A DNA stretch of 32,000 nucleotides. Origin: Planctopirus limnophila DSM 3776 (GTDB lineage Bacteria; Planctomycetota; Planctomycetia; Planctomycetales; Planctomycetaceae). Positions 6,649-29,841 of the stretch are shown here, one piece after another. A program made the position numbers and the translations under genes. The stretch spans positions 4,620,001 to 4,652,000 of the forward strand of contig NC_014148.1 of assembly GCF_000092105.1 (NCBI RefSeq), given 5' to 3'. The notes below the pieces were generated by a model. The model saw only the letters and a list, made by a program, of their open reading frames with translations, was not told where the DNA came from and did no database searches. Position 1 is the first letter of the stretch; the number at the start of each line of letters is the position of its first letter.

Positions 6649-6683
6649 AGCATCACTGTCAAAGCGATTATTGGCAAAGCGAT

Positions 6684-6725
6684 GAGCCCGCTGATCAAGA
6701 TCGATCAGCGGGCTCAATTTCTTTT
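6684..6725. terminator. Intrinsic, probably bidirectional terminator between convergent genes
   Basis: A perfect 13-bp stem GAGCCCGCTGATC (6684-6696) / GATCAGCGGGCTC (6703-6715) has a 6-nt loop and is followed by aatttctttt on the plus strand. Confidence 0.65.
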
Positions 6726-6739
6726 AACAGTTAGAGCAA

Positions 6740-6925
6740 TCAGGCAGCTTCTGAGAGCTCTTCTTCGTCTTCGTCGTAGACGAGGTAATAAATCGTGTTC
6801 GAAAGCTCTTCAATGTGCGATCGAATGGTTTCGCTCGTGACCGATCCTGCTAACTCTTCGAGAGCAGCCACAACTCGATCCACTTCATCGCTCGAGATTT
6901 CTTCGAATTCGAGATCTTCAGACAC
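6740..6925 (-). CDS. Small, highly acidic hypothetical protein (61 aa)
   Basis: A GTG start is preceded by GGAGGGAG 6-8 nt upstream. The sequence is MSEDLEFEEISSDEVDRVVAALEEL...YDEDEEELSEAA, and the terminator hairpin lies just downstream. Confidence 0.55.
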   Translation of the reverse strand: MSEDLEFEEISSDEVDRVVAALEELAGSVTSETIRSHIEELSNTIYYLVYDEDEEELSEAA

Positions 6926-7184
6926 AGGTTTCTCCCTCCATTGAGATCACTGGAAGCAAGATCTTCTTGACCGAAGGCTACATATCCTTCATTTCTGAGA
7001 AGACCTGCAGTGCCTTGGGTATCGGCTGTCACTCTCAGGGCTTTGCACTGCAAAACCATCGCCACCAACGATCCCGGCGAAACGAACTTCTGGCTTCGAT
7101 CCATTCGCTAGAACAGGTTCATTTTGACAAGCCTGTCAAACTTTAGCGGTCAGGCAGACTGATCGGCCCGGGATCGACCTCCCG

Positions 7185-7409
7185 CTATTGAGCTTTCTTC
7201 TTTGGCTTGGCGGCAGCTTTGCCAGAAGACTTTCCTGAAGCAGATTTCGACAGCTTGCCATTGGGTTGGCCAGGCGTTTTAGCTTTTGTCTTCGATGAAT
7301 TTTTAGCACCCGTTGCAGTTTTCGAACTGCTGGTCGTCTTGCCAAAAATACGATCCCACCCATCAGAAAACTCAGCCGTCGCCCCCGTATGCACCGTGTA
7401 ACCAGTCAT
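7185..7409 (-). CDS. Small Lys/Ser-rich basic protein (74 aa)
   Basis: The internal ATG at 7409 is preceded by AAGGAG ~8 nt upstream. The sequence runs MTGYTVHTGATAEFSDGWDRIFGK followed by a K/S-rich tail. The longer track ORF (to 7478) has no SD support. Confidence 0.6.
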   Translation of the reverse strand: MTGYTVHTGATAEFSDGWDRIFGKTTSSSKTATGAKNSSKTKAKTPGQPNGKLSKSASGKSSGKAAAKPKKKAQ

Positions 7410-7573
7410 CAGTCCGCACTCCTTTCTATGTTCTTTGGAGGAAGAGACTCTGAAAACCACTGGAGCAGTCCCCCTCAACTGAAATTGTAGATTGCCGACG
7501 TCCTGCTCGCGATAGACATTTTCCTGGCCATTGGCTTACCCGGCCACCAGCTCTTCTCCAACTCCCAACCACC

Positions 7574-7615
7574 AAAAAAAACAACCCCCAACGACTCTCA
7601 CAAGTCGTCAGGGGT
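7574..7615 (-). terminator. Intrinsic terminator on the minus strand (hairpin plus T8)
   Basis: The minus strand reads ACCCCTGACGACT-TGTGAG-AGTCGTTGGGGG-TTGTTTTTTTT. The ACGACT/AGTCGT and CCCC/GGGG stems are followed by a run of 8 T. No convincing minus-strand ORF lies upstream of it. Confidence 0.5.
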
Positions 7616-8166
7616 CATCCGTATTCCAGCCTCAATCACAGCCCATCCTGGACAGCCACGACCAACGAAGTCACCTTCGCCCGTCATGACTGCCAGCTAG
7701 CCCGATTTCTCAATCGTCTTATGTTCAAGCTTCATTCGCTGTCGATTTTTCCGAATGCAGCTCGCGACCATTTTCGTTCAGTGCATCACAAAGTCTGTTC
7801 GTCACTGACTCAGTTCCCTACTGACCGTAGCACTCGAATTCGAGGGGAAGTACCCACAAGCAGTACTCCCACCATTGACACCTTGAGGTGTCAATCGCAC
7901 AGGATGGGCTCTGATCGAGCCACGGGAGAAACTTCGGTCCGGAATCACAAGCGGGCAGATCCCACCTGCAAGGTGCACCCTGATGAAGCCTCTCTACCCA
8001 ATCCCACTCTGTTGCGCCACCTTTCGCGTAACTAACCAAAAGCGCAGGGAATCGACCGTCTACAATGGTTATACGAATCTGGAGAGCTGCACTCAAAATC
8101 ACCGTGACATCTTGCCGTTAAAAAACTGAACTTTTGCCATTTTTTCAGGATGATTTTTCGACACGC

Positions 8167-8196
8167 TTAGCGGTAATATCTCGTAAGAGATATAAT
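8167..8196 (+). promoter_or_regulatory. Candidate sigma70-like promoter for the 8243 gene
   Basis: A perfect TATAAT at 8191-8196 lies 47 nt upstream of the ATG. A weak -35 TTAGCG at 8167-8172 gives an 18-nt spacer. The surrounding sequence is extremely AT-rich. Confidence 0.3.
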
Positions 8197-8242
8197 TAAA
8201 ATAAGCGCAGTGTGACACGACAACAATCAAGATGGTTACGTC

Positions 8243-9820
8243 ATGCAAAAAAAAGTGGGCGATCAACGAATCGAAATCATAAATGATGACCGTGTGTACA
8301 CTTCTTCAGAGTTGATTGGTAAGCTCAACGCTGAAGGTTTTAGCACTCCAAATGCTCGCAAAATCCTCAGTCGCGAGTCACAAAAAAAGAGCCTTTGGCG
8401 TTCAGAAACGCTCAAATTACCGAGAGATGAACGACTATTTTCTCGATTGGGATTGGTTGGAACGCCATCCTTCTTCGCACAAATCGGAGAAAAACTAAGG
8501 TCAACACAACGGCATGGAATAGCGAGAAGTGTCGCAGCTCTTGGTACGCATAAGCTGCTTCATCGCATGGATCTGCTACGTCTCCTCGCTGTGACATCAT
8601 CAACGGATGCCGCCCTGTCAGGAAGTCGGCAAAGACTCTCATTTGAGGAGGAGTGCCGCTCGCTCGAAGAACTTGGAGCAAAAATCATTCAGCGTGGAAC
8701 AGCTTTAGAGTCAGTTGTGGCACCACAGGCTGTGCAAACCGGTGAAGACCTAGATTCTCTTGCAGTGATTGCCTTAAGCCGAATTCGAGTTGAAACACTT
8801 CTCGCAAAGATTTTAACTGAACGGTTTCGAAAGCAGAATCTCATATCATGGAACTGCATCGATATCGCGGACTTTGACAAGCCATACGTTGTTTTCAATG
8901 GGCAAGTTTTCACAGCATATGGGTTTTCCTATCTTGGACCTCTAAGGCGGTGGAAAGATGGAAACCGAACTCCTACTTCATGTCCAGTCGTTATAGACTG
9001 TTACCACGATATGTGCTCCCTACCTCAGGTTGAATCTTTGCTTCAAAGAATTCAACGAGCAGCCTATCGAGGCCGCAAACAGCAGCCCATCTTGGGCGTA
9101 ATTGCCGCACGCGACTTCGAAACGGAGGCGTGGAGTAAAGCTCGTCAAGAATCGTTAATGACTGTTAGCTTTCGCCAATTGTTCGGCGATGAAGCATTGA
9201 ATGTAATGATTCAGATTGAACAACTGCTTTGCGGAATATGCCAGTCCGATCCAAAAAACTCTCAAGATCAATATAATAAAGTGGCTACACTGATAGAAGA
9301 CTTAAAGGTGAATCCAATTGTAGCAGATTTACGAGCAATTGGTCTTGAATTAATATCTGCTTTGATTCTGCAATCAAATGGATTCACTTCACTAGAGCTC
9401 GGTCGAGTCGTTCCATGGGGTAGTACATCTCGCGATGTAGATGTTTTTGGGATTCGTGCGGATAATGAGTTGAGAATTGTGGAATGTAAAGCCTATCACC
9501 ATAAAAAATCTCTTCTTGACTCCGATGTAAAAAAGTTTTTTACGGAAACCGTACCAGCATTGAAGAAATGGCTGAAAGACAATTCTCGTCATTTTGAAAA
9601 ATGTATTGCTGAAATTTGGACGACAGGGCCTAAAGGCAAAAACGCAGAAAACACCATGAAGGAAATTAGAGTGCCTGCTGGTGACAATTGGACAATACGA
9701 AGAATGAGTGATATGCACGCAGAGATACCAAAAAATATACGAAGACGCAGTGTGGCGCTCTTAAAGGCCATTTCATTTCCAGAAACAGACCTGAACGACT
9801 TATGCAACGAAGAATGCTGA
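8243..9820 (+). CDS. Large hypothetical protein with a C-terminal PD-(D/E)xK (Mrr/restriction-endonuclease-like) nuclease motif; candidate stand-alone defence or restriction-like gene
   Basis: The 525-aa ORF sits in an AT-rich block. The C-terminal region reads ELISALILQSNGFTSLELGRVVPWGSTSRDVDVFGIRADNELRIVECKAY (nt 9434-9490), which contains D...E-x-K in the usual helix-strand context. I did not recognise the N-terminal ~390 aa. Confidence 0.8.
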   Translation: MQKKVGDQRIEIINDDRVYTSSELIGKLNAEGFSTPNARKILSRESQKKSLWRSETLKLPRDERLFSRLGLVGTPSFFAQIGEKLRSTQRHGIARSVAALGTHKLLHRMDLLRLLAVTSSTDAALSGSRQRLSFEEECRSLEELGAKIIQRGTALESVVAPQAVQTGEDLDSLAVIALSRIRVETLLAKILTERFRKQNLISWNCIDIADFDKPYVVFNGQVFTAYGFSYLGPLRRWKDGNRTPTSCPVVIDCYHDMCSLPQVESLLQRIQRAAYRGRKQQPILGVIAARDFETEAWSKARQESLMTVSFRQLFGDEALNVMIQIEQLLCGICQSDPKNSQDQYNKVATLIEDLKVNPIVADLRAIGLELISALILQSNGFTSLELGRVVPWGSTSRDVDVFGIRADNELRIVECKAYHHKKSLLDSDVKKFFTETVPALKKWLKDNSRHFEKCIAEIWTTGPKGKNAENTMKEIRVPAGDNWTIRRMSDMHAEIPKNIRRRSVALLKAISFPETDLNDLCNEEC

Positions 9821-9846
9821 GAATTCAAATAAAGCTGCTTCTTTAA

Positions 9847-10026: not shown

Positions 10027-10052
10027 CCTTCTCCCGTCAGAACGGGAGAAGG
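10027..10052. other. Perfect 11-bp hairpin (ccttctcccgt-caga-acgggagaagg)
   Basis: Complementarity was read directly from the sequence. There is no T-tract, so a terminator role is uncertain. Confidence 0.5.
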
Positions 10053-10087: not shown

Positions 10088-10122
10088 CTGGTGGCAAACG
10101 AGGACGTTTGACCCCAGCCTCA
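10088..10122 (+). repeat. Solo right arm of the MITE-like element
   Basis: CTGGTGGCAAACGAGGACGTTTGACCCCAGCCTCA is near-identical to 1056-1090 and 17678-17712. No partner left arm lies within ~200 bp upstream. Confidence 0.8.
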
Positions 10123-10984: not shown

Positions 10985-11345
10985 CAGCGTGGTGATGGTT
11001 GCGAAGGCATGCTTGCCCAGAGCCGCTGTCTTTTACACACAACTTTGCATCTGTATTAATCTGCGGTGTGGCAAGTGGCTGTGTGGCTGGGGTCAAACGT
11101 CTTCGTTTGCCCCCAGGTCATGAGACTTTGGTCATCCCTGACGACCTTTCTCAACTGCCATGAAGCATGTTTGCAGATGCATTCGTGCCGGTGACCTGAA
11201 TTCACCAATGTGCGGATGCAGACATCCGACCGTTGCCACCCGGCAATGTGAAAACATGAAGTAGAAAAGCGTAAAGACCACGCCCTTTCGCACTGTTTTG
11301 TTTTTTTAGGGGCTTCAGGTCGTGCCACCCAAGACAGTGCCACCC
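10985..11345 (-). repeat. Composite repeat copy C (reverse orientation); the MITE-like core is at 11081..11243
   Basis: 11081-11121 is the reverse complement of the right arm, and 11198-11243 is the reverse complement of the left arm (ccgggtggcaacggtcggatgtctgcatccgc...). The flanks align to copy A, including the R3 core at 11008-11026. Confidence 0.8.
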
Positions 11346-17552: not shown

Positions 17553-17712
17553 GGGTGGCAGGGGTCGGATGTCTTCATCCGCCCCCTGGTCAATCAAGTT
17601 CACCAGCGCAAATGCATCCGAAACATACATTTATTGCTTTTAACGCCGTTCGTCAAAAGCGATCAGCGTCAAACAAACTGGGGGCAAACGAGGACGTTTG
17701 ACCCCAGCCACC
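17553..17712 (+). repeat. MITE-like element copy D (160 bp, core only)
   Basis: The left arm is 17553-17595 (GGGTGGCAGGGGTCGGATGTCTTCATCCGCCCCCTGGTCAATC) and the right arm is 17678-17712 (CTGGGGGCAAACGAGGACGTTTGACCCCAGCCACC). Confidence 0.85.
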
Positions 17713-21338: not shown

Positions 21339-21501
21339 GGGTGGCAGGGGTCAAACGTCCTCGTTTGCCCCCGGGTCATCTGACATTGGCACTTCATGGC
21401 GACGTTCATGGAGAGTCATGAAGAACATTGCGGATGCAATGTGTCCTGTGGTCCTCGAGTGACCTGGGGGCGAATGAAGACATCCGACCCCAGCCACCCG
21501 G
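21339..21501 (-). repeat. MITE-like element copy E (reverse orientation, 163 bp)
   Basis: 21339-21380 GGGTGGCAGGGGTCAAACGTCCTCGTTTGCCCCCGGGTCATC is the reverse complement of the right arm. 21459-21501 GTGACCTGGGGGCGAATGAAGACATCCGACCCCAGCCACCCGG is the reverse complement of the left arm. Confidence 0.85.
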
Positions 21502-21523
21502 CCTTTTTTGTGGGGAACATTTC

Positions 21524-22336
21524 ATGAATCAATTTGGTTGGCGCGATGATCTGGAAGAGCGTCTGCTGTTGTCGGCATCTTCTCAAGCTCCGCTGACGAG
21601 GTCATTCTCTGTCAGCGATGCTCCACAAGAAATCGATCCCCGCCCATGGCATCGCATTGAAATGCAGGGATCTTTGGGAAGCTGCCAGGGGCATGCCCTG
21701 TCGAGCGTGGGAGAAATGGCCTATCACCTCGCCAGTGGGCGCGTGACGCAGTTCTCACCTCTGTTTGCCTATTACGCCACTCAGCAGATCGATGGGCTTT
21801 TAGGACGTGATCAGGGGAGCACCATTCAAGGGGGTGTCCAATGTGCCCGGCAATATGGCTTCTGCCCGCTGGAGGTGTTCCCGAACCCCGTCCCCTTGCG
21901 CTACACCGGTGTGATTCCTCAAGAAGCCTGGCCCGCAGCGGCACCATTTCGCATCCGGTCGCACACTGTGTGCACCTCGTATGACGATGTCTGGTCATTT
22001 CTCGCAGCCGGGCAAGGAGGTGTGGTGGCTGGCCTGGGCTGGAACAGCAGCCTCACGCCACGTCAGGGGCGTATTGAAAGTTATCGCCCGGGCGGTGGCG
22101 GGCATGCCGTCGCATTTCTGGGATACAGCCGGCGGCGCGATGCCCAGCAACGACCTTATCTCTGGCTGGCCAACAGCTGGTCAGAGGAGTGGGGAGATGA
22201 CGGCTGGGCAGAGGTTGCTCCGCAGGCGGTGGAATCGATGCTGGCTGATCGCCGGACTGTCATGGTCGGTCTCTCGGATCTCAGTCTGCCGACACCAAGA
22301 CCCATTCCCTGGCGAGAAAAATCGATCTTTGAGTGA
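21524..22336 (+). CDS. Papain-family (C1) cysteine peptidase with no obvious signal peptide
   Basis: Contains QGSLGSCQGHAL (catalytic Cys context), GGGHAVAFLGY (catalytic His) and LANSWSEEWGDDGW (Asn-Ser-Trp). The ATG at 21524 is preferred because the longer track ORF begins inside the MITE copy. Confidence 0.85.
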   Translation: MNQFGWRDDLEERLLLSASSQAPLTRSFSVSDAPQEIDPRPWHRIEMQGSLGSCQGHALSSVGEMAYHLASGRVTQFSPLFAYYATQQIDGLLGRDQGSTIQGGVQCARQYGFCPLEVFPNPVPLRYTGVIPQEAWPAAAPFRIRSHTVCTSYDDVWSFLAAGQGGVVAGLGWNSSLTPRQGRIESYRPGGGGHAVAFLGYSRRRDAQQRPYLWLANSWSEEWGDDGWAEVAPQAVESMLADRRTVMVGLSDLSLPTPRPIPWREKSIFE

Positions 22337-22412
22337 GCCCCGCACCTGCTGAGCGGCTCGCGGATTTTATTGACATCCAGTTTCCACACACCCTTTGTTT
22401 CAGGGGAGAATC

Positions 22413-23315
22413 ATGTTCCGGAGCATCACCTTCTCGCTGATCTATCCTGCCGGGCTAATCATGTGGCTGGCCACTGGCCCGCAGGCAGGGGCCCAACCTC
22501 ATGTAATGGCTGAAGAAGCTCTTTCGCAGTCAACGAAAGCGGCATGGCCATCACTCTTTGCAGAGGCAGCAAGCCCCGCGAGTCCTGTGAATACAGCTCA
22601 GAATTCTCGTGCGTTGCAGTGGCTGGTGTTTTATGGCCCGGGGTGTGTCCCCTGCATGCGCGCTATTCACGATTTTCAGCCCTGGTTGAAGGCCAGTGGC
22701 TGGGAGGTGAGCGAAGTTCCCCAGGCTCATATCCGCTTGATCGACGCCAATCGCGAACAGTCGCTGGCACGACAGTTTCAGATCGAAGCTTGGCCCACCT
22801 TTGTGCTTATGCATGAGGGGAAAGTCCTCGAGCGGCACACATCGTATCCGGGGCGGCAATTCCTGGCAGACCGCTATCTGGCAGCCGCTGCTCGAGTTCG
22901 TGACCAGCGAAGCTTCACCAGCCATGAGCCAGTCAGTGCGATCTCGATGGGCACTTTGTCCAATACGTCTCGGGAAGTGGCCCTGCTGCTGGAATCGACC
23001 CGGCCTCTGCTCGAAGCGGGACTGATGTTCGAAGGCCGTCTCCTGCCAGCCAGCCAGAAGGCTTCAGGCAGCTTGCCAGCCAGTACCACCATTTCACTCA
23101 CCGAATCAGCAGCCATCCGGCTCTACTGGCCACTCGTGTTTCGCTTATCGAGACAACAAAACTCGCTCCATCTCGATTTCGAGAAGCCATATCCCCAGTT
23201 CCGGATGTCGAACATCTTTCCTGTCGAACAATCGATTGAAGGGCTCACAGCCACCACGCAATCTCTCACTATCGAGTTGCCCCGCATGATTGACCTCAAG
23301 TGGCAGCTCGATTAA
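22413..23315 (+). CDS. Secreted thioredoxin-fold protein (CVPC) with an uncharacterised C-terminal domain
   Basis: The signal-like N-terminus is MFRSITFSLIYPAGLIMWLATGPQAGA. WLVFYGPGCVPC provides the CxxC motif and EAWPTFVLMHEGKV provides a cis-Pro loop. GGGAGA lies upstream of the ATG at 22413. Confidence 0.75.
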   Translation: MFRSITFSLIYPAGLIMWLATGPQAGAQPHVMAEEALSQSTKAAWPSLFAEAASPASPVNTAQNSRALQWLVFYGPGCVPCMRAIHDFQPWLKASGWEVSEVPQAHIRLIDANREQSLARQFQIEAWPTFVLMHEGKVLERHTSYPGRQFLADRYLAAAARVRDQRSFTSHEPVSAISMGTLSNTSREVALLLESTRPLLEAGLMFEGRLLPASQKASGSLPASTTISLTESAAIRLYWPLVFRLSRQQNSLHLDFEKPYPQFRMSNIFPVEQSIEGLTATTQSLTIELPRMIDLKWQLD

Positions 23316-23402
23316 TCGACCCTCGTTGAATCGCCGATCGTGGAATGGCCCCATCAGTTCTCTGTGTTCATCGTTCACGCCGGTCTTACTGGATCTCCCG
23401 AC

Positions 23403-24293
23403 ATGCTGCTCAATATCTGCTACCACATCGCCCCTAAGGCACCCACCGTTCAGGCCTCGATGGTTTGCGATCACTTCGGCCTGACACTTGATGGCCAGCA
23501 GCAGGTGATTGCCCGCGATCTCGAACTCCCGGTCACTTCCGGAAACCTCATTGCCTTCGTCGGCCCCTCGGGCTCTGGCAAATCGTCACTCATGCGGGCC
23601 GTCGCTGCAGAGCTGAAGTCATCGGGCCAAGGAGATGTTCTGTGGCTTGATCATCTGCCGCAGGTTGCGTCACTCGTGGCCGACGCCCTGGCACTTCCAC
23701 CACTGGATGCCTTTCGACTTCTGGCCCAGTGCGGTCTGGCTGAGCCACAACTTCTTTTGCGAACACCTGATGAACTGAGCGACGGCCAGAGATTTCGCTT
23801 TCGCCTCGCACAAAGTGTGGCCGAGGCGCTTCGTCGCCAAAGTCAGCATTCATCACAGGGCACCTGGATCGCGGCCGATGAGTTCACTTCGCCACTCGAT
23901 CGCACGCTAGCCAAAGTGATGGCCCGCAACTGGCATTCCCTGTTGCGCCAACATCGCCTCGGTGGCCTCGTGGCCACCACACACACCGATATTCTCGACG
24001 ACCTCGAGCCCGACCTCATCGTCACCTGCAGTCACGACGCGCCGCCTCAGCTTTCCGGCCTGGCCGCCTCGCCGACATTCTCGTCCGCAACATCGTCCGC
24101 ACAGCGGACCCTACGGGAGGCCGACGCCCCCACGCCCGCTGTAAAAAAAAAGAAATCAGCTTTTTCCACGAACTGGCCCTCACCACCGGAACGAAACGCG
24201 ACTGGGCGTATTTTGCTCGGTGGCATTACCGCTCGCACTCCGTCGGCATTGTCCGCTTCGTCACCATCCTCTGGCATCTCCACGAACCCATAG
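23403..24293 (+). CDS. ABC-type ATPase (no transmembrane domain); the zero-frame product ends in a low-quality tail after an A9 tract
   Basis: Contains Walker A GPSGSGKSS, signature LSDGQRFR, Walker B WIAADEFTSPLD and H-loop ATTHTD. After ...PTPAVKKKK the frame-0 sequence (SAFSTNWPSPPERNATGRILLGG...) no longer looks protein-like. The start is ATG at 23403 or GTG at 23340. Confidence 0.85.
   Translation: MLLNICYHIAPKAPTVQASMVCDHFGLTLDGQQQVIARDLELPVTSGNLIAFVGPSGSGKSSLMRAVAAELKSSGQGDVLWLDHLPQVASLVADALALPPLDAFRLLAQCGLAEPQLLLRTPDELSDGQRFRFRLAQSVAEALRRQSQHSSQGTWIAADEFTSPLDRTLAKVMARNWHSLLRQHRLGGLVATTHTDILDDLEPDLIVTCSHDAPPQLSGLAASPTFSSATSSAQRTLREADAPTPAVKKKKSAFSTNWPSPPERNATGRILLGGITARTPSALSASSPSSGISTNP
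24143..24152 (+). promoter_or_regulatory. A9 tract containing a dnaX-type A_AAA_AAG -1 slippery heptamer, in phase with the ATPase frame
   Basis: The frame-0 codons are GTA AAA AAA AAG AAA. The heptamer A AAA AAG occupies 24146-24152. A -1 shift here enters the GNAT-like frame exactly at EISFFHELALTTG... Confidence 0.5.
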
Positions 24294-24814
24294 GCATCTG
24301 TGTCTTCACCAGTGCCCCACTCTCGTTGCGTTTGCGCAACCAGTACTTTGGTCTTTCCGGCCGCTGGACAAGAACCGGCCTCCAGGCCATCGATCGACAG
24401 TTCTGCCGATTGGCCCGCGTGGTGATTCATCCCACGTATCGAGGAGCCGGGCTGGCGGCTCCTTTTGTTCGCGCCAGTTGCCAGCATGTTCCCTGGCCGT
24501 GGATCGAATCGCTCGCCGAGATGGGGCAGTTCCACCCCTTCTTCGAGAAAGCCGGGTTCCTCAATCTCGGGGAATGTCAGTCCGCAACCCATTCCCCAAA
24601 GGCACCTGCCGCAGACCATCGTGAGCAGCACTCCCAAATCTACGGCACACGTTCACTTTCGGGCCGCAAGCGATTGATCACTCATGAAACGTTCCGCAAA
24701 AGCCAACATGCTCACCCCGTCTACTTCCTCTTCGATAATCGAAACTCACCCGCCTACCTTGCCAGTTGCCAGAGAAGAATCGCCAACAGTCCCCCATCCC
24801 ATGCTCTGGAATGA
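24152..24814 (+). CDS. GNAT-like acetyltransferase domain ORF lacking its own start codon (reachable from the ATPase frame by a -1 shift or by A10)
   Basis: Hand translation of the -1 frame gives EISFFHELALTTGTKRDWAYFARWHYRSHSVGIVRFVTILWHLHEPIGICVFTSAPLSLRLRNQYFGL...LARVVIHPTYRGAGLAAPFVR...FFEKAGF, which includes a GNAT motif-A-like R-x-x-G-x-G/A. This frame is open from 23882 but has no ATG, GTG or TTG before the TTG at 24326. Confidence 0.65.
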   Translation, partial: EISFFHELALTTGTKRDWAYFARWHYRSHSVGIVRFVTILWHLHEPIGICVFTSAPLSLRLRNQYFGLSGRWTRTGLQAIDRQFCRLARVVIHPTYRGAGLAAPFVRASCQHVPWPWIESLAEMGQFHPFFEKAGFLNLGECQSATHSPKAPAADHREQHSQIYGTRSLSGRKRLITHETFRKSQHAHPVYFLFDNRNSPAYLASCQRRIANSPPSHALE

Positions 24815-25244
24815 ATCACTCGAAACCACACCACAGCTTCTGAAACCCGCTCTGCTCACCAGCGATCAACAGGCGGAGTTTCTCGAACTTCTCACCAAAG
24901 GAGCCAGTCCCTTCGGTGCCTGTGAGAAGCTGGAATGTTCGCAACTGCAACTGGCTCTCACGCTCGCGCAAGATGCCGAATTTTCCGAGAAGCTCAAGGC
25001 GATCAAGGAGATTCAAGGCCAGAACGTGGTGGCCATGCTCTATCAGGCGGCCCTCAAGGGAAATGTCACAGCTCAGCAATTCTGGCTGCGCCATCAGCCA
25101 CCAGCCGACTGGCGACTGGCTGCCAGCCCACTGGAAGGACAAGACCTCAGCGATGCCGATCTCTTTGACCGCTGCCGAGAGGCAGGACTTGATTTCCCGC
25201 CTGAACTCACTGCGCGCCTGGCAACTCCTGATCTCGAGGCATAA
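24801..25244 (+). CDS. Putative terminase small subunit / HTH DNA-binding protein
   Basis: 147 aa from the ATG at 24801, overlapping the end of the GNAT frame by 14 nt. It contains LTSDQQAEFLELLTKGAS...ACEKL (HTH-like) and AALKGNVTAQQFWLRH, a motif I associate with phage small terminases. It lies directly upstream of terL. Confidence 0.6.
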   Translation: MLWNESLETTPQLLKPALLTSDQQAEFLELLTKGASPFGACEKLECSQLQLALTLAQDAEFSEKLKAIKEIQGQNVVAMLYQAALKGNVTAQQFWLRHQPPADWRLAASPLEGQDLSDADLFDRCREAGLDFPPELTARLATPDLEA

Positions 25245-26751
25245 TCCTCACAGCTTCCGGCATGTGGTCCGTCTTTCTGCCGCCGATCGAACGCGGCAGG
25301 CCACACTCGAATCGTGGCAACGGGCCGATTTCGCAGCCCTCGACCCCGCCTGGCGCAAATTGGCTTTCGGTTCTCGTCCTTCGTTATCACAGGCCGACGC
25401 GACCACTTCGAACGCTCCCCACGTTCTTCGAAGGGCCTATCTCGAGCGACCGCGCGGCCACTCGAAAACCACCGATATCGCTCTCTCCTGCGCCTGGATA
25501 CTCGCCTTCGCGCAGGAACCCGTCACTGGCATTGCAGCGGCTGCTGATCGTGAACAGGCCCAGTTGCTCCTGCAGGCCATTGCGAGGCTCGTGCGTCTCA
25601 ATCCTCACCTGCTGGGCCATCTGCAGGTGCAGCAGGAACGGGTGATCCACACGCACACACGCAGCCGGCTCGATGTCATTTCTTCCGATGTCGCCAGCTC
25701 CTGGGGCCTGCTCCCCGATTTCGTCATCTGTGACGAACTCTGCCACTGGACAAAGCCTGATCTGTGGCATTCGCTCGTTTCTGCATCGGCGAAAAAGCCG
25801 CACACCCTGCTCGCTGTGATGAGTAATGCTGGTGTGGGCCGTACCTGGCAATGGCAGGTTCGCGAGGCTGCCCGCACTTCTCCCGAGTGGTACTTCTCAT
25901 CGCTCCATGGCCCTCAGGCGAGCTGGATTACCCCAGAAACACTGGCCGAGCAGCAGCGTTTGCTCCCCGCGACCGTCTTTGCCCGCTTGTGGCTCAATCA
26001 GTGGCAACAGGCGGAAGGCGACTTCGTCACTCTCGACGAAGCCCGGGCCTGTATCGATCCCTCACTCGCGAGGAAAGAGCATGGTTCACCAGGCATCCAT
26101 TATGTGGCGGCCATCGATTATGCCGAGAAGCACGACTGGACAGTCGCTGTCATTCTGCATGCCGAGGGAGATCGCCTGATTGTCGATCGCATGGATGTCG
26201 CTATTCCACAGCCCGGGCGGCCCACACCTGTCGCGTGGGTCGATAACTGGCTCACCTGGGCAGCGGGTGCCTTTGATGATATTGAGTTCGTGCTCGATGA
26301 ATATCAGTTATTGTCCATCATCCAGCATCGCTCGGCAGAACTCGCACTCGAACGCTTTTCGTTCGCTGGTGGAGCCGGGAATCACGCTCTGGCGATGTTA
26401 TTGCGGCAACTGATTATCGAACGCCGGGTGCTCTGGTACCCCGGTTGCGGCTCACCGCAATTCGATCAACTCGATTTTTCCCACGGGCCCACTCCTGCAG
26501 AAGCGCTGATCAATCCCGAGACGACGACGCAGCCGGGAGATGAGAACGATCTGGCTCAGGAACTGGCGACACTTTTGCTGCGACAGTCGCCTTCGGGCCG
26601 ATTGCGTTTTGACCATCGAAACGAAGCCGGCTTCCACGACGACCGCGCCTTCGCTCTCGCCGCTGCCTGTTTAAAACTGACAAAAACACCCATCTCTCCC
26701 TCCTACTTCGACCTCACCCCACCCACAACCGACGGCACATTCGCCTGGTAA
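25153..26751 (+). CDS. Phage terminase large subunit (Terminase_1/COG4626-like)
   Basis: Contains ERPRGHSKTTD (Walker A-like), DFVICDELCHW (Walker B), MSNAG, and the C-terminal RNase-H-like nuclease motifs AAIDYAEKHDWT and FHDDRAFALAAA. The start is uncertain: ATG at 25153 overlaps terS by 92 nt, and GTG at 25264 is the alternative. Confidence 0.9.
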   Translation: MPISLTAAERQDLISRLNSLRAWQLLISRHNPHSFRHVVRLSAADRTRQATLESWQRADFAALDPAWRKLAFGSRPSLSQADATTSNAPHVLRRAYLERPRGHSKTTDIALSCAWILAFAQEPVTGIAAAADREQAQLLLQAIARLVRLNPHLLGHLQVQQERVIHTHTRSRLDVISSDVASSWGLLPDFVICDELCHWTKPDLWHSLVSASAKKPHTLLAVMSNAGVGRTWQWQVREAARTSPEWYFSSLHGPQASWITPETLAEQQRLLPATVFARLWLNQWQQAEGDFVTLDEARACIDPSLARKEHGSPGIHYVAAIDYAEKHDWTVAVILHAEGDRLIVDRMDVAIPQPGRPTPVAWVDNWLTWAAGAFDDIEFVLDEYQLLSIIQHRSAELALERFSFAGGAGNHALAMLLRQLIIERRVLWYPGCGSPQFDQLDFSHGPTPAEALINPETTTQPGDENDLAQELATLLLRQSPSGRLRFDHRNEAGFHDDRAFALAAACLKLTKTPISPSYFDLTPPTTDGTFAW

Positions 26752-26838
26752 TCGCCGACTTGTTGTGTGCCTGCCAAACGCGGAGGGTCCGCTATGCGGA
26801 CCATATCCCGCGTTCCACTGGTAGCATCTTCATAAGTA

Positions 26839-26857
26839 GGGTGCATGCCAATGCACC
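26839..26857. repeat. Hairpin GGGTGCAT-GCCA-ATGCACC; left member of an inverted pair flanking the NERD gene
   Basis: The 7-bp stem was read directly. The sequence resembles the reverse complement of 27787-27807 (GGGTGCAATGCCAAGTGCATT). Confidence 0.5.
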
Positions 26858-27089
26858 AGTTCGGCCATCCTCTTTATAGCTGACTGGCATCAAATGAAAC
26901 CTTCTCGTCCGGGTGCCACTGTTGGCTCGCCCAGCAGTGCTCGTCAGAAAGTGAGTCGAGGATGTACATGGCCACCCATCGAGACTGATCTTCCACTGGA
27001 AGCGGTTGATGGCAGCTTTGCGGAAAGCTACGGTGGACTAAGGCTTTGCGCAACCCACCAGTTCAGCTCACAGCAACATCAGGCCCCCC

Positions 27090-27776
27090 ATGAGCCATCT
27101 CCGAGGTTGGTTTGGCGAAATCTGCACCCGGCTGGGCCTGTGGCTCAGGCTCCCTTCGCGAACCTACCGCCAGTTCCACAACGTCGTCGTCCCCACCTCC
27201 AACGGCACGACACAGATCGATCACCTGATCGTTTCAACTTACGGCCTCTTCGTCATTGAAACCAAGACCATGAATGGCTGGATCTATGGCAACGAGCAAG
27301 ACAGCCAGTGGACGCAGAAGTTCTATAAAAAATCGTTCCGCTTCCAGAACCCGCTCAAGCAGAACTATCGGCATCTCTGCTGCCTCGAAGAGCACCTGGG
27401 CCTGCCCCGAACCTGCATGCACTCGATTATCTTCTTCATCGGCGACGCGGAACTGAAGACCCCCATGCCCAGCAACGTCCTCACTCACGGCCTGTCGAGC
27501 TATATCCGCTGGCATCGCGAGCCATTATTATCTGAAGACGAAGTGGAGCGGATCATCGCCGCCATCCAGGAACTGAAACGCGATCGCACTCTCAACCACG
27601 CCACCCACATGGCCTCACTCGCAGACCGCCACTCCTCAACCACCCGCTGCCCCAAATGCGGCAACGATCTCATCGAGCGGCAATCCCAACGCGGCCCGAA
27701 TGCCGGCAACACCTTCCTCGGCTGCAAATCCTACCCCCGCTGCCGCTTCACCAGACAACTCTCCCAAGAGCCATAA
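27090..27776 (+). CDS. NERD-domain nuclease fused to a topoisomerase-type C4 zinc ribbon
   Basis: Contains QIDHLIVSTYGLFVIETKTMNGWIYGNEQDSQWTQ (NERD signature) and the C-terminal CPKCGNDLIERQSQRGPNAGNTFLGCKSYPRCR (zf-C4_Topoisom pattern). Confidence 0.9.
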   Translation: MSHLRGWFGEICTRLGLWLRLPSRTYRQFHNVVVPTSNGTTQIDHLIVSTYGLFVIETKTMNGWIYGNEQDSQWTQKFYKKSFRFQNPLKQNYRHLCCLEEHLGLPRTCMHSIIFFIGDAELKTPMPSNVLTHGLSSYIRWHREPLLSEDEVERIIAAIQELKRDRTLNHATHMASLADRHSSTTRCPKCGNDLIERQSQRGPNAGNTFLGCKSYPRCRFTRQLSQEP

Positions 27777-27786
27777 CGCAGCACGG

Positions 27787-27807
27787 AATGCACTTGGCAT
27801 TGCACCC
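27787..27807. repeat. Right member of the inverted hairpin pair flanking the NERD gene
   Basis: AATGCACTTGGCATTGCACCC has the reverse complement GGGTGCAATGCCAAGTGCATT, compared with GGGTGCATGCCAATGCACC at 26839 (two 1-nt indels). Confidence 0.45.
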
Positions 27808-28044
27808 ACACTGGTACGTGGCACACAACATGCCAGAGTGACCCAGCCTTGTTGTCACCGACCTAATTGTATTCCTTAGGCAGAAGACAGTCGGCTACTA
27901 GAGAACGTCTATTGTCCTTCCCTGCCGAAGATCCTCAAGTTCAACTCAGTGAAGCAGAGAGATCCATAACATTTTGCGACGTGGCCATCCCAACAGAAAT
28001 CTGAATCTCAACCCTGACCACCCGACGGAATCAATTGATCATTA

Positions 28045-28251
28045 CTACTCATCGTGAGTAGCTTGATTGCGTGCACAAGGGTGACAAACAACCTCATGTC
28101 TTGGTTTGTCGAGAATGATATCTTCCGGTGCCAATGGTGCCACAGAAGATGGTTGCAAACTTTGCAAAAGGATGTGTCTTTTCCAAATTGGCCATTCTCT
28201 GACCACTGCCGCAGCACGTTCTAGCTTCTCAAGGAATTCGGCATCAGTCAC
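28045..28251 (-). CDS. Small hypothetical protein (68-71 aa) translationally coupled to the deaminase gene
   Basis: The GTG at 28251 has GGGAG 8 nt upstream and overlaps the deaminase stop (GTGACTGA); an alternative GTG is at 28260. The sequence reads (MEKV)TDAEFLEKLERAAAVVREWPIWKRHILLQS... GC content is similarly reduced to that of the deaminase gene. Confidence 0.45.
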   Translation of the reverse strand: MTDAEFLEKLERAAAVVREWPIWKRHILLQSLQPSSVAPLAPEDIILDKPRHEVVCHPCARNQATHDE

Positions 28252-29755
28252 TTTTTCCACTCCCAGTTGCGGCGTTAATTGACTGAAGGAAAAGTGTAGC
28301 CGCCTCCGTTTCGGAATCCAAATAAGAACGCGGCGCCATCTGTATTCTAGAACGAGAATCTTGAATAGACCAGTTTATCTTCTGTCCACTTTCATCATTT
28401 TTGCGCACTAGTGGGTAGCTCGACCCCAGTTGCATGGAGAATAAGTCAAAAAAACGTCGAGGGCCGATTCCGACAAACGGCTCGAATCTCACTCGTCCGT
28501 TCACTTGCTCACTTTTTGTTCCGGGAGGTGCAATTGAGTCGTCGTGAAACTCCAAAGCCTTGCTTTTTGGATATGGTTCAACGTAAACGACTCTCTCAAT
28601 GCCTGCCGCTACAATATGTTTCGCACAATTGTGACAGGGAAACGTAGTGCAGTAAAGTGTTGCTCCAACAGTTGAAACACAATTCCTGGCGCAGCTAAGA
28701 ATTGCTTCCATTTCCGCATGAACAACTCGACCGAATTCAGTCAGATCTCGAATCGGACTACCCTCAAGGCAAGCTGCCACCATCTTAGTATCAACATTAC
28801 ACTTCTGGCCGATTGAATTAGCAATACTGTTAATCATTCTTACCTGTTCAGCTCGATTAGAATCGCCATCCTTCCTCATGTAGTCTCTACCATCTTCCAA
28901 ATCTCGAATACACGGGCCATCATGGCGATCTGGCCAGTACAGACCTCCGCCTGCCTTGGGGCAGTCATTAGCTCCAGTCGAAAGTATCTGCTTATCCTTA
29001 GCGACAACGGCTCCTACCTGCCTCGAAAGATCTGCGGAGCGAAGCGCTGACGAAAACGCCATAAACATTGCATGCTCGTCGAATGTTGGCGTCTGGAAAG
29101 GATTGCCGAACCAGAGATCGACAATACGGTCGATGTCACACGCAAGCTGCGATTGATTAGAAGAGAGATCTATAAAAAAATCGGCCAAATGAAATGTTTT
29201 CCGCAACCTCTGTCCATGCGGATCTTCACTTTCGTCAGCATCACGATCAAGCAGTCGATCAACCTGTTCGGTTGACAACCCCTTACGAGTGAGCTCTTGA
29301 CGCCGATCCTGCTCGCTCTGATGAACACCAATTAGCAGAAAACCGGATGGATAGGTCACCCTTAAAAATTCGACCTCCTCTGGCCGCTTTAGGGAACTGA
29401 TTATAAATGCGGCTTTCTGTTTTGGCTGAATTGTCTCGTTGCTACTCAATCGCCGTGAATATATGTTCGCGACAACACCTTGTGCCAACACTGAGTCACC
29501 GTGCTCCGCCCTTGACTTATTCCCGGCATCCATCATCTTGTTGATTCGGTCGTATTCCGATTTGTACGGCGTATTGTCACCTGACATACGGCTCATCACA
29601 TCGCTAGAAACGCGAATAACTTCAACTGTATAGGAGGCTCTTTCCAGTGACTTTTGTAGATCCCGGATGAATCGATCACTATCTGTCCCTACAGCGTGCA
29701 AAAGTCCAATCATCAACTCAGGATGAAAAGATACAGATGAGTCTACTTTTTCCAT
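28244..29755 (-). CDS. Kinase-like N-terminal domain fused to a dCMP/CMP-type zinc deaminase (AvcD / anti-phage dCTP-deaminase type)
   Basis: The C-terminal half has HAEMEAI and PCHNCAKHIVAAGIERVVYVEPYPKS (the CDA zinc motifs H-A-E and P-C-x-x-C). The N-terminus has PELMIGLLHAVGTDSDRF...YTVEVIRVS and HLADFFID, resembling the nucleotide-kinase-like module of defence deaminases. The ATG at 29755 is preferred over the GTG at 29764. Confidence 0.85.
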   Translation of the reverse strand: MEKVDSSVSFHPELMIGLLHAVGTDSDRFIRDLQKSLERASYTVEVIRVSSDVMSRMSGDNTPYKSEYDRINKMMDAGNKSRAEHGDSVLAQGVVANIYSRRLSSNETIQPKQKAAFIISSLKRPEEVEFLRVTYPSGFLLIGVHQSEQDRRQELTRKGLSTEQVDRLLDRDADESEDPHGQRLRKTFHLADFFIDLSSNQSQLACDIDRIVDLWFGNPFQTPTFDEHAMFMAFSSALRSADLSRQVGAVVAKDKQILSTGANDCPKAGGGLYWPDRHDGPCIRDLEDGRDYMRKDGDSNRAEQVRMINSIANSIGQKCNVDTKMVAACLEGSPIRDLTEFGRVVHAEMEAILSCARNCVSTVGATLYCTTFPCHNCAKHIVAAGIERVVYVEPYPKSKALEFHDDSIAPPGTKSEQVNGRVRFEPFVGIGPRRFFDLFSMQLGSSYPLVRKNDESGQKINWSIQDSRSRIQMAPRSYLDSETEAATLFLQSINAATGSGKSD

Positions 29756-29841
29756 GATCGCCACTTACTAAGATTACCAATTCGACTGAGCTGCTATTGT
29801 GTGCGATTTGAAGGGGTAAGAGCAAGTTGTAAATGTCCAAC

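Follow-up and report, generated by a model that had tools for sequence, protein, structure and literature searches.

In the stretch of Planctopirus limnophila DSM 3776 analysed here (32,000 nucleotides (nt), positions 4,620,001 to 4,652,000 of contig NC_014148.1; hereafter the window), a single-gene islet of low guanine-plus-cytosine (GC) content encodes a protein of 525 amino acids (aa). This protein carries a conserved and complete PD-(D/E)xK nuclease site, a second, degenerate fold of the same type and a conserved winged-helix region. Its relatives reside in anti-phage defence islands, and their repeated linkage to the Gabija genes gajA and gajB is the most distinctive finding. The reading that we favour, by somewhat more than an even chance, is that of a self-contained DNA endonuclease used in defence against phages or other invading DNA and acquired horizontally as a single gene.

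An earlier annotation of the window, made from the letters and their open reading frames (ORFs) and called here the sequence-only reading, had already proposed a stand-alone defence nuclease. The present analysis supports that proposal in outline, with the defence function itself inferred. The gene is an intact ORF with an ATG start and, as had been claimed, the sole credible gene of the low-GC block; all further ORFs within its span are short shadows, antisense or out of frame. The features of the window are collected in the table below.

Table. Coordinates of the gene, its protein domains and nearby sequence features in the window
Feature	Position	Strand	Basis or detail
Coding sequence, 525 aa, ATG start, stop included	8243..9820	+	ORF list
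Low-GC block	8000..9820		GC profile of the window
Winged-helix array, aa ~15-165	8285..8737	+	AlphaFold2 models (pLDDT about 90), conservation
Middle domain, degenerate PD-(D/E)xK fold, aa ~170-320	8750..9202	+	Model, alignment
C-terminal Mrr-like PD-(D/E)xK domain, aa ~356-490	9308..9712	+	Pfam, Foldseek, model
Catalytic constellation (predicted)	9347..9490	+	E369 9347-9349, R397 9431, D/E398 9434, D400 9440-9442, E414-C415-K416 9482-9490
TATAAT hexamer, possible -10	8191-8196	+	46 nt before the ATG
Perfect hairpin, 11 bp	10027-10052		Downstream spacer
Dispersed 32-nt repeat, one copy	10088-10119		Four further copies in the window
32-nt repeat, other copies	1056-1087, 17678-17709, 11085-11116 (-), 21347-21369 (-)		94-100% identical

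Domain organization and nuclease site

The structure models predict a protein in which a winged-helix array is followed by a pseudo-nuclease, a helical linker and a putatively active Mrr-like nuclease. The model built by AlphaFold2 (AF2) on the homologue alignment had a predicted local distance difference test score (pLDDT) of 86 and a predicted template modelling score (pTM) of 0.80, and a second model of aa 1-350 alone reached 89.5 and 0.86, respectively. The conservation of residues was followed in two alignments, A1, composed of 34 family sequences with 30-63% identity, and A2, composed of 47 sequences.

At the N-terminus, helix-helix-strand-strand units were modelled at aa 21-68, 75-115, and 120-159. 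The array comprises two or three winged helices, and R44, W52, R53, and R90 are invariant in A1. The Foldseek matches of this region were weak and fell on Fur, PadR, MarR, BlaI, Z-alpha, and the winged-helix arrays of TFIIIC tauB; the array is presumed to be a nucleic-acid-binding module. The model of aa 1-350 still matched PD-(D/E)xK enzymes, namely NucS/EndoMS (2vld and 5gke), MspJI (4f0p), AspBHI (4oc8), and AF1548, with E values of 5e-4 to 1e-2 and root-mean-square deviations of 3.9-4.6 Å over about 125 columns, and for this reason the middle domain is read as a second nuclease fold. In this domain N219 and R269 are invariant, with D252 nearly so; the (D/E)xK position (IDCYH) has no lysine, and the fold is therefore taken as catalytically dead. 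The sequence-only reading had left the N-terminal ~390 aa unrecognised, as a large sensor-like region with possible winged helices. The winged helices were indeed found, but the region also contains the degenerate nuclease fold and is not a single sensor.

The C-terminal domain was modelled as an alpha-beta-beta-beta-alpha-beta core (helix 360-378, strands 381-392, 395-405, and 409-416, helix 426-446, and strand 453-460). Its Foldseek matches were AF1548, the SduA-DNA complex, NucS/EndoMS, Card1, and Can2, with a probability of 1.0 for AF1548, SduA, and NucS. The motif DVDVFG...ELRIVECKAY, previously noted at nt 9434-9490, was confirmed there, with D398 at 9434 and K416 at 9488, and the helix reported ahead of it, ELISALILQSNGF, is present and starts at E369 (nt 9347). 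E369, R397, D400, E414, C415, K416, and the AEIWTTG strand that follows the ExK motif (aa 456-462) are invariant in A1, and the same catalytic residues are nearly invariant in A2. The D/ExK residues are thus conserved among homologues, a point on which the sequence-only reading had made its proposal depend. Its choice of D398 as the catalytic aspartate for mutation had to be replaced, because D400 is invariant and position 398 is D or E; D400 is taken as the canonical residue. Both the core fold (AF2 and Foldseek) and the E...D...(D/E)xK residues of the PD-(D/E)xK superfamily were found in this protein.

At the level of sequence profiles, Mrr_cat was matched by 18 of the 34 members of A1 at E<0.01 (best 8.3e-6) and Mrr_cat_2 by nine, and a distant member, P0190, scored 28.3 bits against an Mrr_cat cut-off of 21. 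Single-sequence and profile searches of the PDB by sequence gave nothing significant. Weak matches to RTT107_BRCT_5, EFL1, and Cohesin_load in Pfam, and to chloramphenicol acetyltransferase and haemoglobin in the PDB, were discarded as noise. A PADLOC match to HEC-01B (E 0.006, aa 243-306) was also rejected; two of the 34 members show it, and HEC-01B is a TOPRIM protein (bioRxiv 10.1101/2024.01.29.577857).

Probable horizontal acquisition, relatives and defence neighbourhoods

The GC content of the gene is 44.0% (37.1% at third codon positions), compared with 54.0% across 15 kb flanks. In windows of 300 nt the GC fraction is 0.39-0.52 within the gene and 0.51-0.58 outside, and the gene stretch is the minimum among the 1.6-kb windows of the 32 kb (0.436, against a mean of 0.552 and a standard deviation of 0.029 for the remainder). 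The sharp compositional break of the sequence-only reading therefore stands as the lowest-GC stretch of the window, although the contrast given for it, 32-38% against 55-62%, was overstated. The flanking genes are housekeeping genes (a holA-like gene, a BamB/PQQ propeller, a PIG-L deacetylase, an AMP-binding enzyme, coaE, and rho), and a NusB gene and a phosphoglucomutase-like gene lie further downstream. Among the homologue loci, the GC content of the gene was likewise below that of its flanks in 30 of 36. Horizontal acquisition of a single-gene islet is supported, because the gene lies about ten GC points under its flanks, because most homologue loci behave in the same way and because the immediate flanks are housekeeping genes. 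No insertion marks (flanking direct repeats, a tRNA or an Rfam element) were found around the gene.

No methyltransferase, ATPase or partner gene accompanies the gene in the window, as the sequence-only reading had stated, and tblastn detected neither gajA nor gajB there. Remnants of Gabija, of restriction-modification (R-M) systems or of other neighbour genes were absent from the 1.6-kb left spacer and from the right spacer. The lack of an adjacent methyltransferase, with BamB-like and PIG-L-like genes as flanks, differs from a type II R-M system.

At E<=1e-3 the homologues fell into 75 clusters, whose proteins are for the most part full length, with 510-545 aa and 30-64% identity, and an exhaustive search at the same threshold gave 339 representatives. 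Most hosts belong to the Planctomycetota and some to the Verrucomicrobiota and Acidobacteriota, and the distribution is patchy. No usable family name was found in PADLOC or NCBIfam, and Pfam gives a weak Mrr_cat-type match only; no housekeeping family in these three sources claims the protein. Nine of ten queried clusters were unnamed and the tenth (P0073) was a 'hypothetical protein', and no mention of the accession of the E. coli/Klebsiella plasmid homologue, WP_032433926, was found in the literature. A phage origin was considered and rejected, with no copy in GenBank phages or IMG/VR and generic nuclease folds as the BFVD matches.

Moreover, a distant full-length branch with about 20-23% identity was connected to the family by hhalign (probability 99.3%, E 3e-20). 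It occurs on 267 PLSDB plasmids, mostly enterobacterial and chiefly from Klebsiella and E. coli, and in 71 of 5426 complete E. coli genomes, always annotated as 'hypothetical protein'; the copy examined closely is on an IncF plasmid. On the Klebsiella plasmid pDA33140-112 the relative (L069, 6503-8095) has HEPN nuclease, DUF4238, and RES-domain genes as neighbours, and on a Pantoea plasmid (L070, 6920-8488) it adjoins the Septu genes PtuA/PtuB.

Some family sequences are irregular. In three loci (L021, 10001-11511; L023, 10001-11309; L028, 10001-10408) the homologue is split into two or three frames, or only its C-terminal 140 aa are left; these copies are either pseudogenes or long-read assembly errors. 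Another protein, P0071 (507 aa), joins a phage-integrase domain (PF00589) to about half of the family protein; it could be a fusion, or the gene could have been mis-called at an integrase junction.

The neighbourhoods of the homologues were compared in 51 independent loci, obtained by scans of genome and metagenome collections and by exact protein-sequence look-ups. Of these, 41 were informative, with 2 kb or more of flanking sequence on one side or both, and 26 had both flanks. Known defence genes were found beside the homologues in several of them. Type I R-M genes (hsdM, hsdS, hsdR) adjoin the homologue in L002, L040, and L050/L051. In L017 (1-11494) HmaA, HmaB, and HmaC, with a GmrSD-like HEC-05 gene embedded between HmaA and HmaB, precede the homologue, which follows 211 nt downstream, and in L053 (3651-18385) it is flanked by Avs4 (E 4e-142) and by JetC/JetD of Wadjet. 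A NERD-UvrD candidate is the neighbour in L025, and L002 and L066 also hold ThsB-TIR, patatin, AbiEi/AbiEii, reverse transcriptase, HNH, and integrase genes. The context expected by the sequence-only reading was thus found, in the form of Gabija, type I R-M, Hma, Avs4 with Wadjet, AbiE, Thoeris TIR, and integrase neighbours. No methyltransferase recurs across loci except within the separate type I or Hma systems, and no conserved synteny with repair genes was observed.

When the neighbour ORFs were clustered all against all, the Gabija pair and the type I R-M subunits were the only recurrent families. A comparison of 126 neighbour ORFs with PADLOC gave a list of the best 25 matches that was filled by redundant GajA/GajB models, identifying GajA (OLD/TOPRIM ATPase, E 6e-209) and GajB (UvrD helicase, E 3e-120 to 4e-147). 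The pair gajA-gajB lies directly beside the homologue in six of the 41 informative loci, or ~15% (5/26 with both flanks), so that the absence of a partner gene holds for the window and not for the whole family. Three arrangements occur: the gene is divergent to gajA-gajB in L007, L009, and L022, convergent in L002 and co-directional in L020 and L066, in the order gajA-gajB-gene with gaps of 84 and 270 nt. The six loci span two Gabija size classes. Additionally, the identities of the three proteins rise and fall together, being 66% for the family protein, 65% for GajA, and 63% for GajB between L002 and L009, 85, 87, and 78% between L007 and L022, and 32, 27, and 29% between L002 and L007. The three genes have therefore travelled together, and the linkage may mean functional cooperation or merely co-residence and co-transfer in islands.

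Proposed mode of action and competing explanations

In the favoured reading, the winged-helix array would bind DNA and the Mrr-like domain would cut it, in a metal-dependent manner, at E369, D400, E414, and K416. The dead middle fold could partner the active domain without catalytic activity of its own, as part of a pseudo-dimer, as an oligomerisation surface or as a second DNA contact. The protein would in this way protect the host against invading DNA, and where it is inherited with gajA-gajB it may complement or cooperate with Gabija. In none of the loci does a methyltransferase travel with the gene, and host DNA must therefore be spared in another way. The first choice is a type IV logic, in which the protein would recognize only modified or foreign-type DNA, as the winged helices of EcoKMrr or DpnI do, and the second is an auto-inhibition lifted upon infection, according to the logic of Shedu or Upx. 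Type IV logic is weakly preferred, because the putative sensor is strongly conserved and Arg-rich, not hypervariable, and because the architecture and the place beside type I R-M genes mirror EcoKMrr and the immigration control region of E. coli.

EcoKMrr consists of a winged helix and an Mrr-cat domain (PMC12707154). The family resembles it in being a single polypeptide with no methyltransferase, an N-terminal winged-helix region and a C-terminal Mrr-type PD-(D/E)xK domain, and its AEIWTTG strand fits the Mrr_cat pattern. Some copies are divergent to a type I R-M operon, as mrr is to hsdR in E. coli K-12 with a gap of 188 nt; the copy in L002 is likewise divergent to hsdM. MspJI and AspBHI are among the structural matches of the family. 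By contrast, EcoKMrr has 304 aa, not 525, and a QxK motif in place of ExK, and the family protein has the extra degenerate nuclease fold and more than one winged helix. It is predicted to work like an Mrr-type stand-alone restriction nuclease, yet it is placed outside the Mrr family proper, because the window protein, unlike the distant member P0190, lies below the Pfam threshold, because Mrr_N (PF14338) matched neither the window protein nor any of the 34 members and because homology to EcoKMrr was not detectable.

Several observations weigh against the favoured reading. The Pfam match of the window protein, to Mrr_cat_2 at aa 405-478, has an E value of 0.0024 and 18.2 bits against a cut-off of 22, and hhalign of A1 against EcoKMrr gave a probability of 0.17%, aligning the alpha-1 helix alone. 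No PADLOC model gave an accepted match for the window protein or the 34 members. Several copies, including that of the window, lie among housekeeping genes, metabolic or informational, with no defence neighbour, and the tallies of defence neighbours are raw counts, not an enrichment. Moreover, nuclease activity, substrate and phenotype are all inferred, as is the dependence on DNA modification.

A rather unlikely alternative is that the protein resembles Shedu and abortive-infection systems, being an auto-inhibited nuclease whose N-terminal and pseudo-nuclease domains shut the active site until a phage cue (free DNA ends, replication intermediates or a phage protein) releases indiscriminate DNA cutting. 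The gene stands alone without a modification partner. Shedu, too, is a defence system of one gene, in which a variable N-terminus precedes a PD-(D/E)xK nuclease at the C-terminus. The SduA-DNA complex 8ps5 was the second-best PDB match (Foldseek E 9e-5), but the N-terminal architectures differ, the superposition is limited to the shared nuclease core with template modelling (TM) scores of about 0.2 (0.18-0.22), and the SduA/DUF4263 profile matched neither the window protein nor the 34 members in Pfam or PADLOC. Upx (Gao_Upx) offers a precedent, since it combines a canonical and an atypical PD-(D/E)xK fold in one polypeptide that stands alone in defence islands and is regulated by its middle domain, with relief by a phage protein (PMC13099982). 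It differs in its 1272 aa, in the weak exonuclease activity that its atypical domain retains (PMC13099982), in domain order and in the winged helices found at the N-terminus of the present family. The Upx profile of PADLOC was not matched, and its three-domain architecture of ~1270 aa is not that of a 525-aa protein. The adjacency to Gabija, a sensor of DNA ends and nucleotide depletion, would also suit auto-inhibition; the conservation of the N-terminal region, with its invariant Arg and Trp residues, argues against it, since sensors that bind phage proteins are usually hypervariable.

The linkage to Gabija can also be read more directly. It is quite unlikely, in our estimate, that the protein is an accessory third component of Gabija, at least ancestrally, which might for example make or process the DNA ends sensed by GajB, with the solo copies, that of the window included, as orphans that have kept or lost the function. 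The direct adjacency in six of 41 loci, in three arrangements and two size classes and with co-varying identities, speaks for this explanation. Nevertheless, Gabija is not found nearby in the other 35 informative loci, among which are the window and its nearest relatives, canonical Gabija is already complete as two genes, and co-divergence would also be expected for co-residents of one island. The family protein matches neither the GajA (ABC ATPase-TOPRIM) nor the GajB (UvrD helicase) profile and, to our knowledge, a gene of this kind is absent from all published Gabija variants; what was published as 'GajC', in type II Gabija, is MazF-like and unrelated (PMC13069673). A role outside defence is very unlikely, whether as a repair or recombination nuclease of the NucS/EndoMS type or as a selfish nuclease of plasmids or mobile elements used in competition or maintenance. 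NucS/EndoMS and AF1548 are among the best structural matches for both nuclease-fold domains, the EIDV...ECK of AF1548 aligns with RDVDV...ECK of the family (sequence similarity not significant, E 0.38), several copies lie amid housekeeping genes and the carriers of the distant branch are mostly conjugative plasmids of the IncF type. However, NucS, a conserved repair enzyme, has a PCNA/beta-clamp motif and differs in its N-terminal domain, whereas the present family is patchy, atypical in GC content and found in islands. The NucS profile PF01939 was not matched in Pfam even at E<=10, leaving a similarity of structure only, and no repair family was matched in Pfam or NCBIfam. Known defence systems recur as neighbours, and repair-gene synteny was not seen.

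Surrounding sequence and meaning of the family

The TATAAT hexamer that the sequence-only reading placed upstream of the gene is present, but no acceptable -35 accompanies it, and a promoter scan called no sigma-70-type site on the + strand for the gene. No intrinsic terminator was found 3' of the gene (downstream fold z = -0.5). The repeat elements proposed as its right-hand boundary also exist. The perfect hairpin is probably not part of the gene, and the 32-nt repeat, which looks like an element of the repetitive extragenic palindrome (REP) or miniature inverted-repeat transposable element (MITE) kind in this genome, occupies at least five sites in the window. Since these copies lie in several intergenic regions, the repeat does not mark a specific boundary of the low-GC gene.

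Two other parts of the window are unusual. The 1.6 kb to the left of the gene (6649-8242) are gene-poor, with a GC content of 49.7% and a GC skew down to -0.33 at 7400-7850, and contain an inverted repeat of 20 nt (7631-7650 / 7900-7919), a perfect hairpin of 14 nt (6683-6716) and, on the - strand, two compositionally odd small ORFs, an acidic one of 61 aa (6740-6925) and a Lys-rich one of 97 aa (7185-7478); no Rfam or tRNA match was found in this spacer. About 12-20 kb downstream of the gene, a cluster of non-housekeeping ORFs (21428-29764) encodes a papain-like protease (21428-22336), an ABC/nSTAND-like ATPase (23340-24293), a TerL-like terminase ATPase (24916-26751) and a 506-aa protein of the cytidine-deaminase / MafB19-like deaminase type (28244-29764, - strand). 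The cluster could represent what is left of a prophage, or else a second variable region.

With these results, a family that named sources record as 'hypothetical protein', on about 270 plasmids and in 71/5426 E. coli genomes, gains a description at the level of its domains. If the defence role is true, it would be a new single-gene PD-(D/E)xK system whose active and dead nuclease folds are arranged in an unusual way. The repeated and co-diverging linkage to Gabija is a lead on the cooperation of Gabija with a second nuclease. A further step, which we consider unlikely, would make this undescribed and widely dispersed family of winged-helix array, pseudo-nuclease and Mrr-like domain a functional third partner of Gabija, in a three-gene variant whose DNA-cutting module feeds or backs up GajA-GajB; if true, such a partner would span Planctomycetota, Verrucomicrobiota, Acidobacteriota, and enterobacterial IncF plasmids. 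The relatives on E. coli and Klebsiella plasmids bring the family within reach of a standard host.

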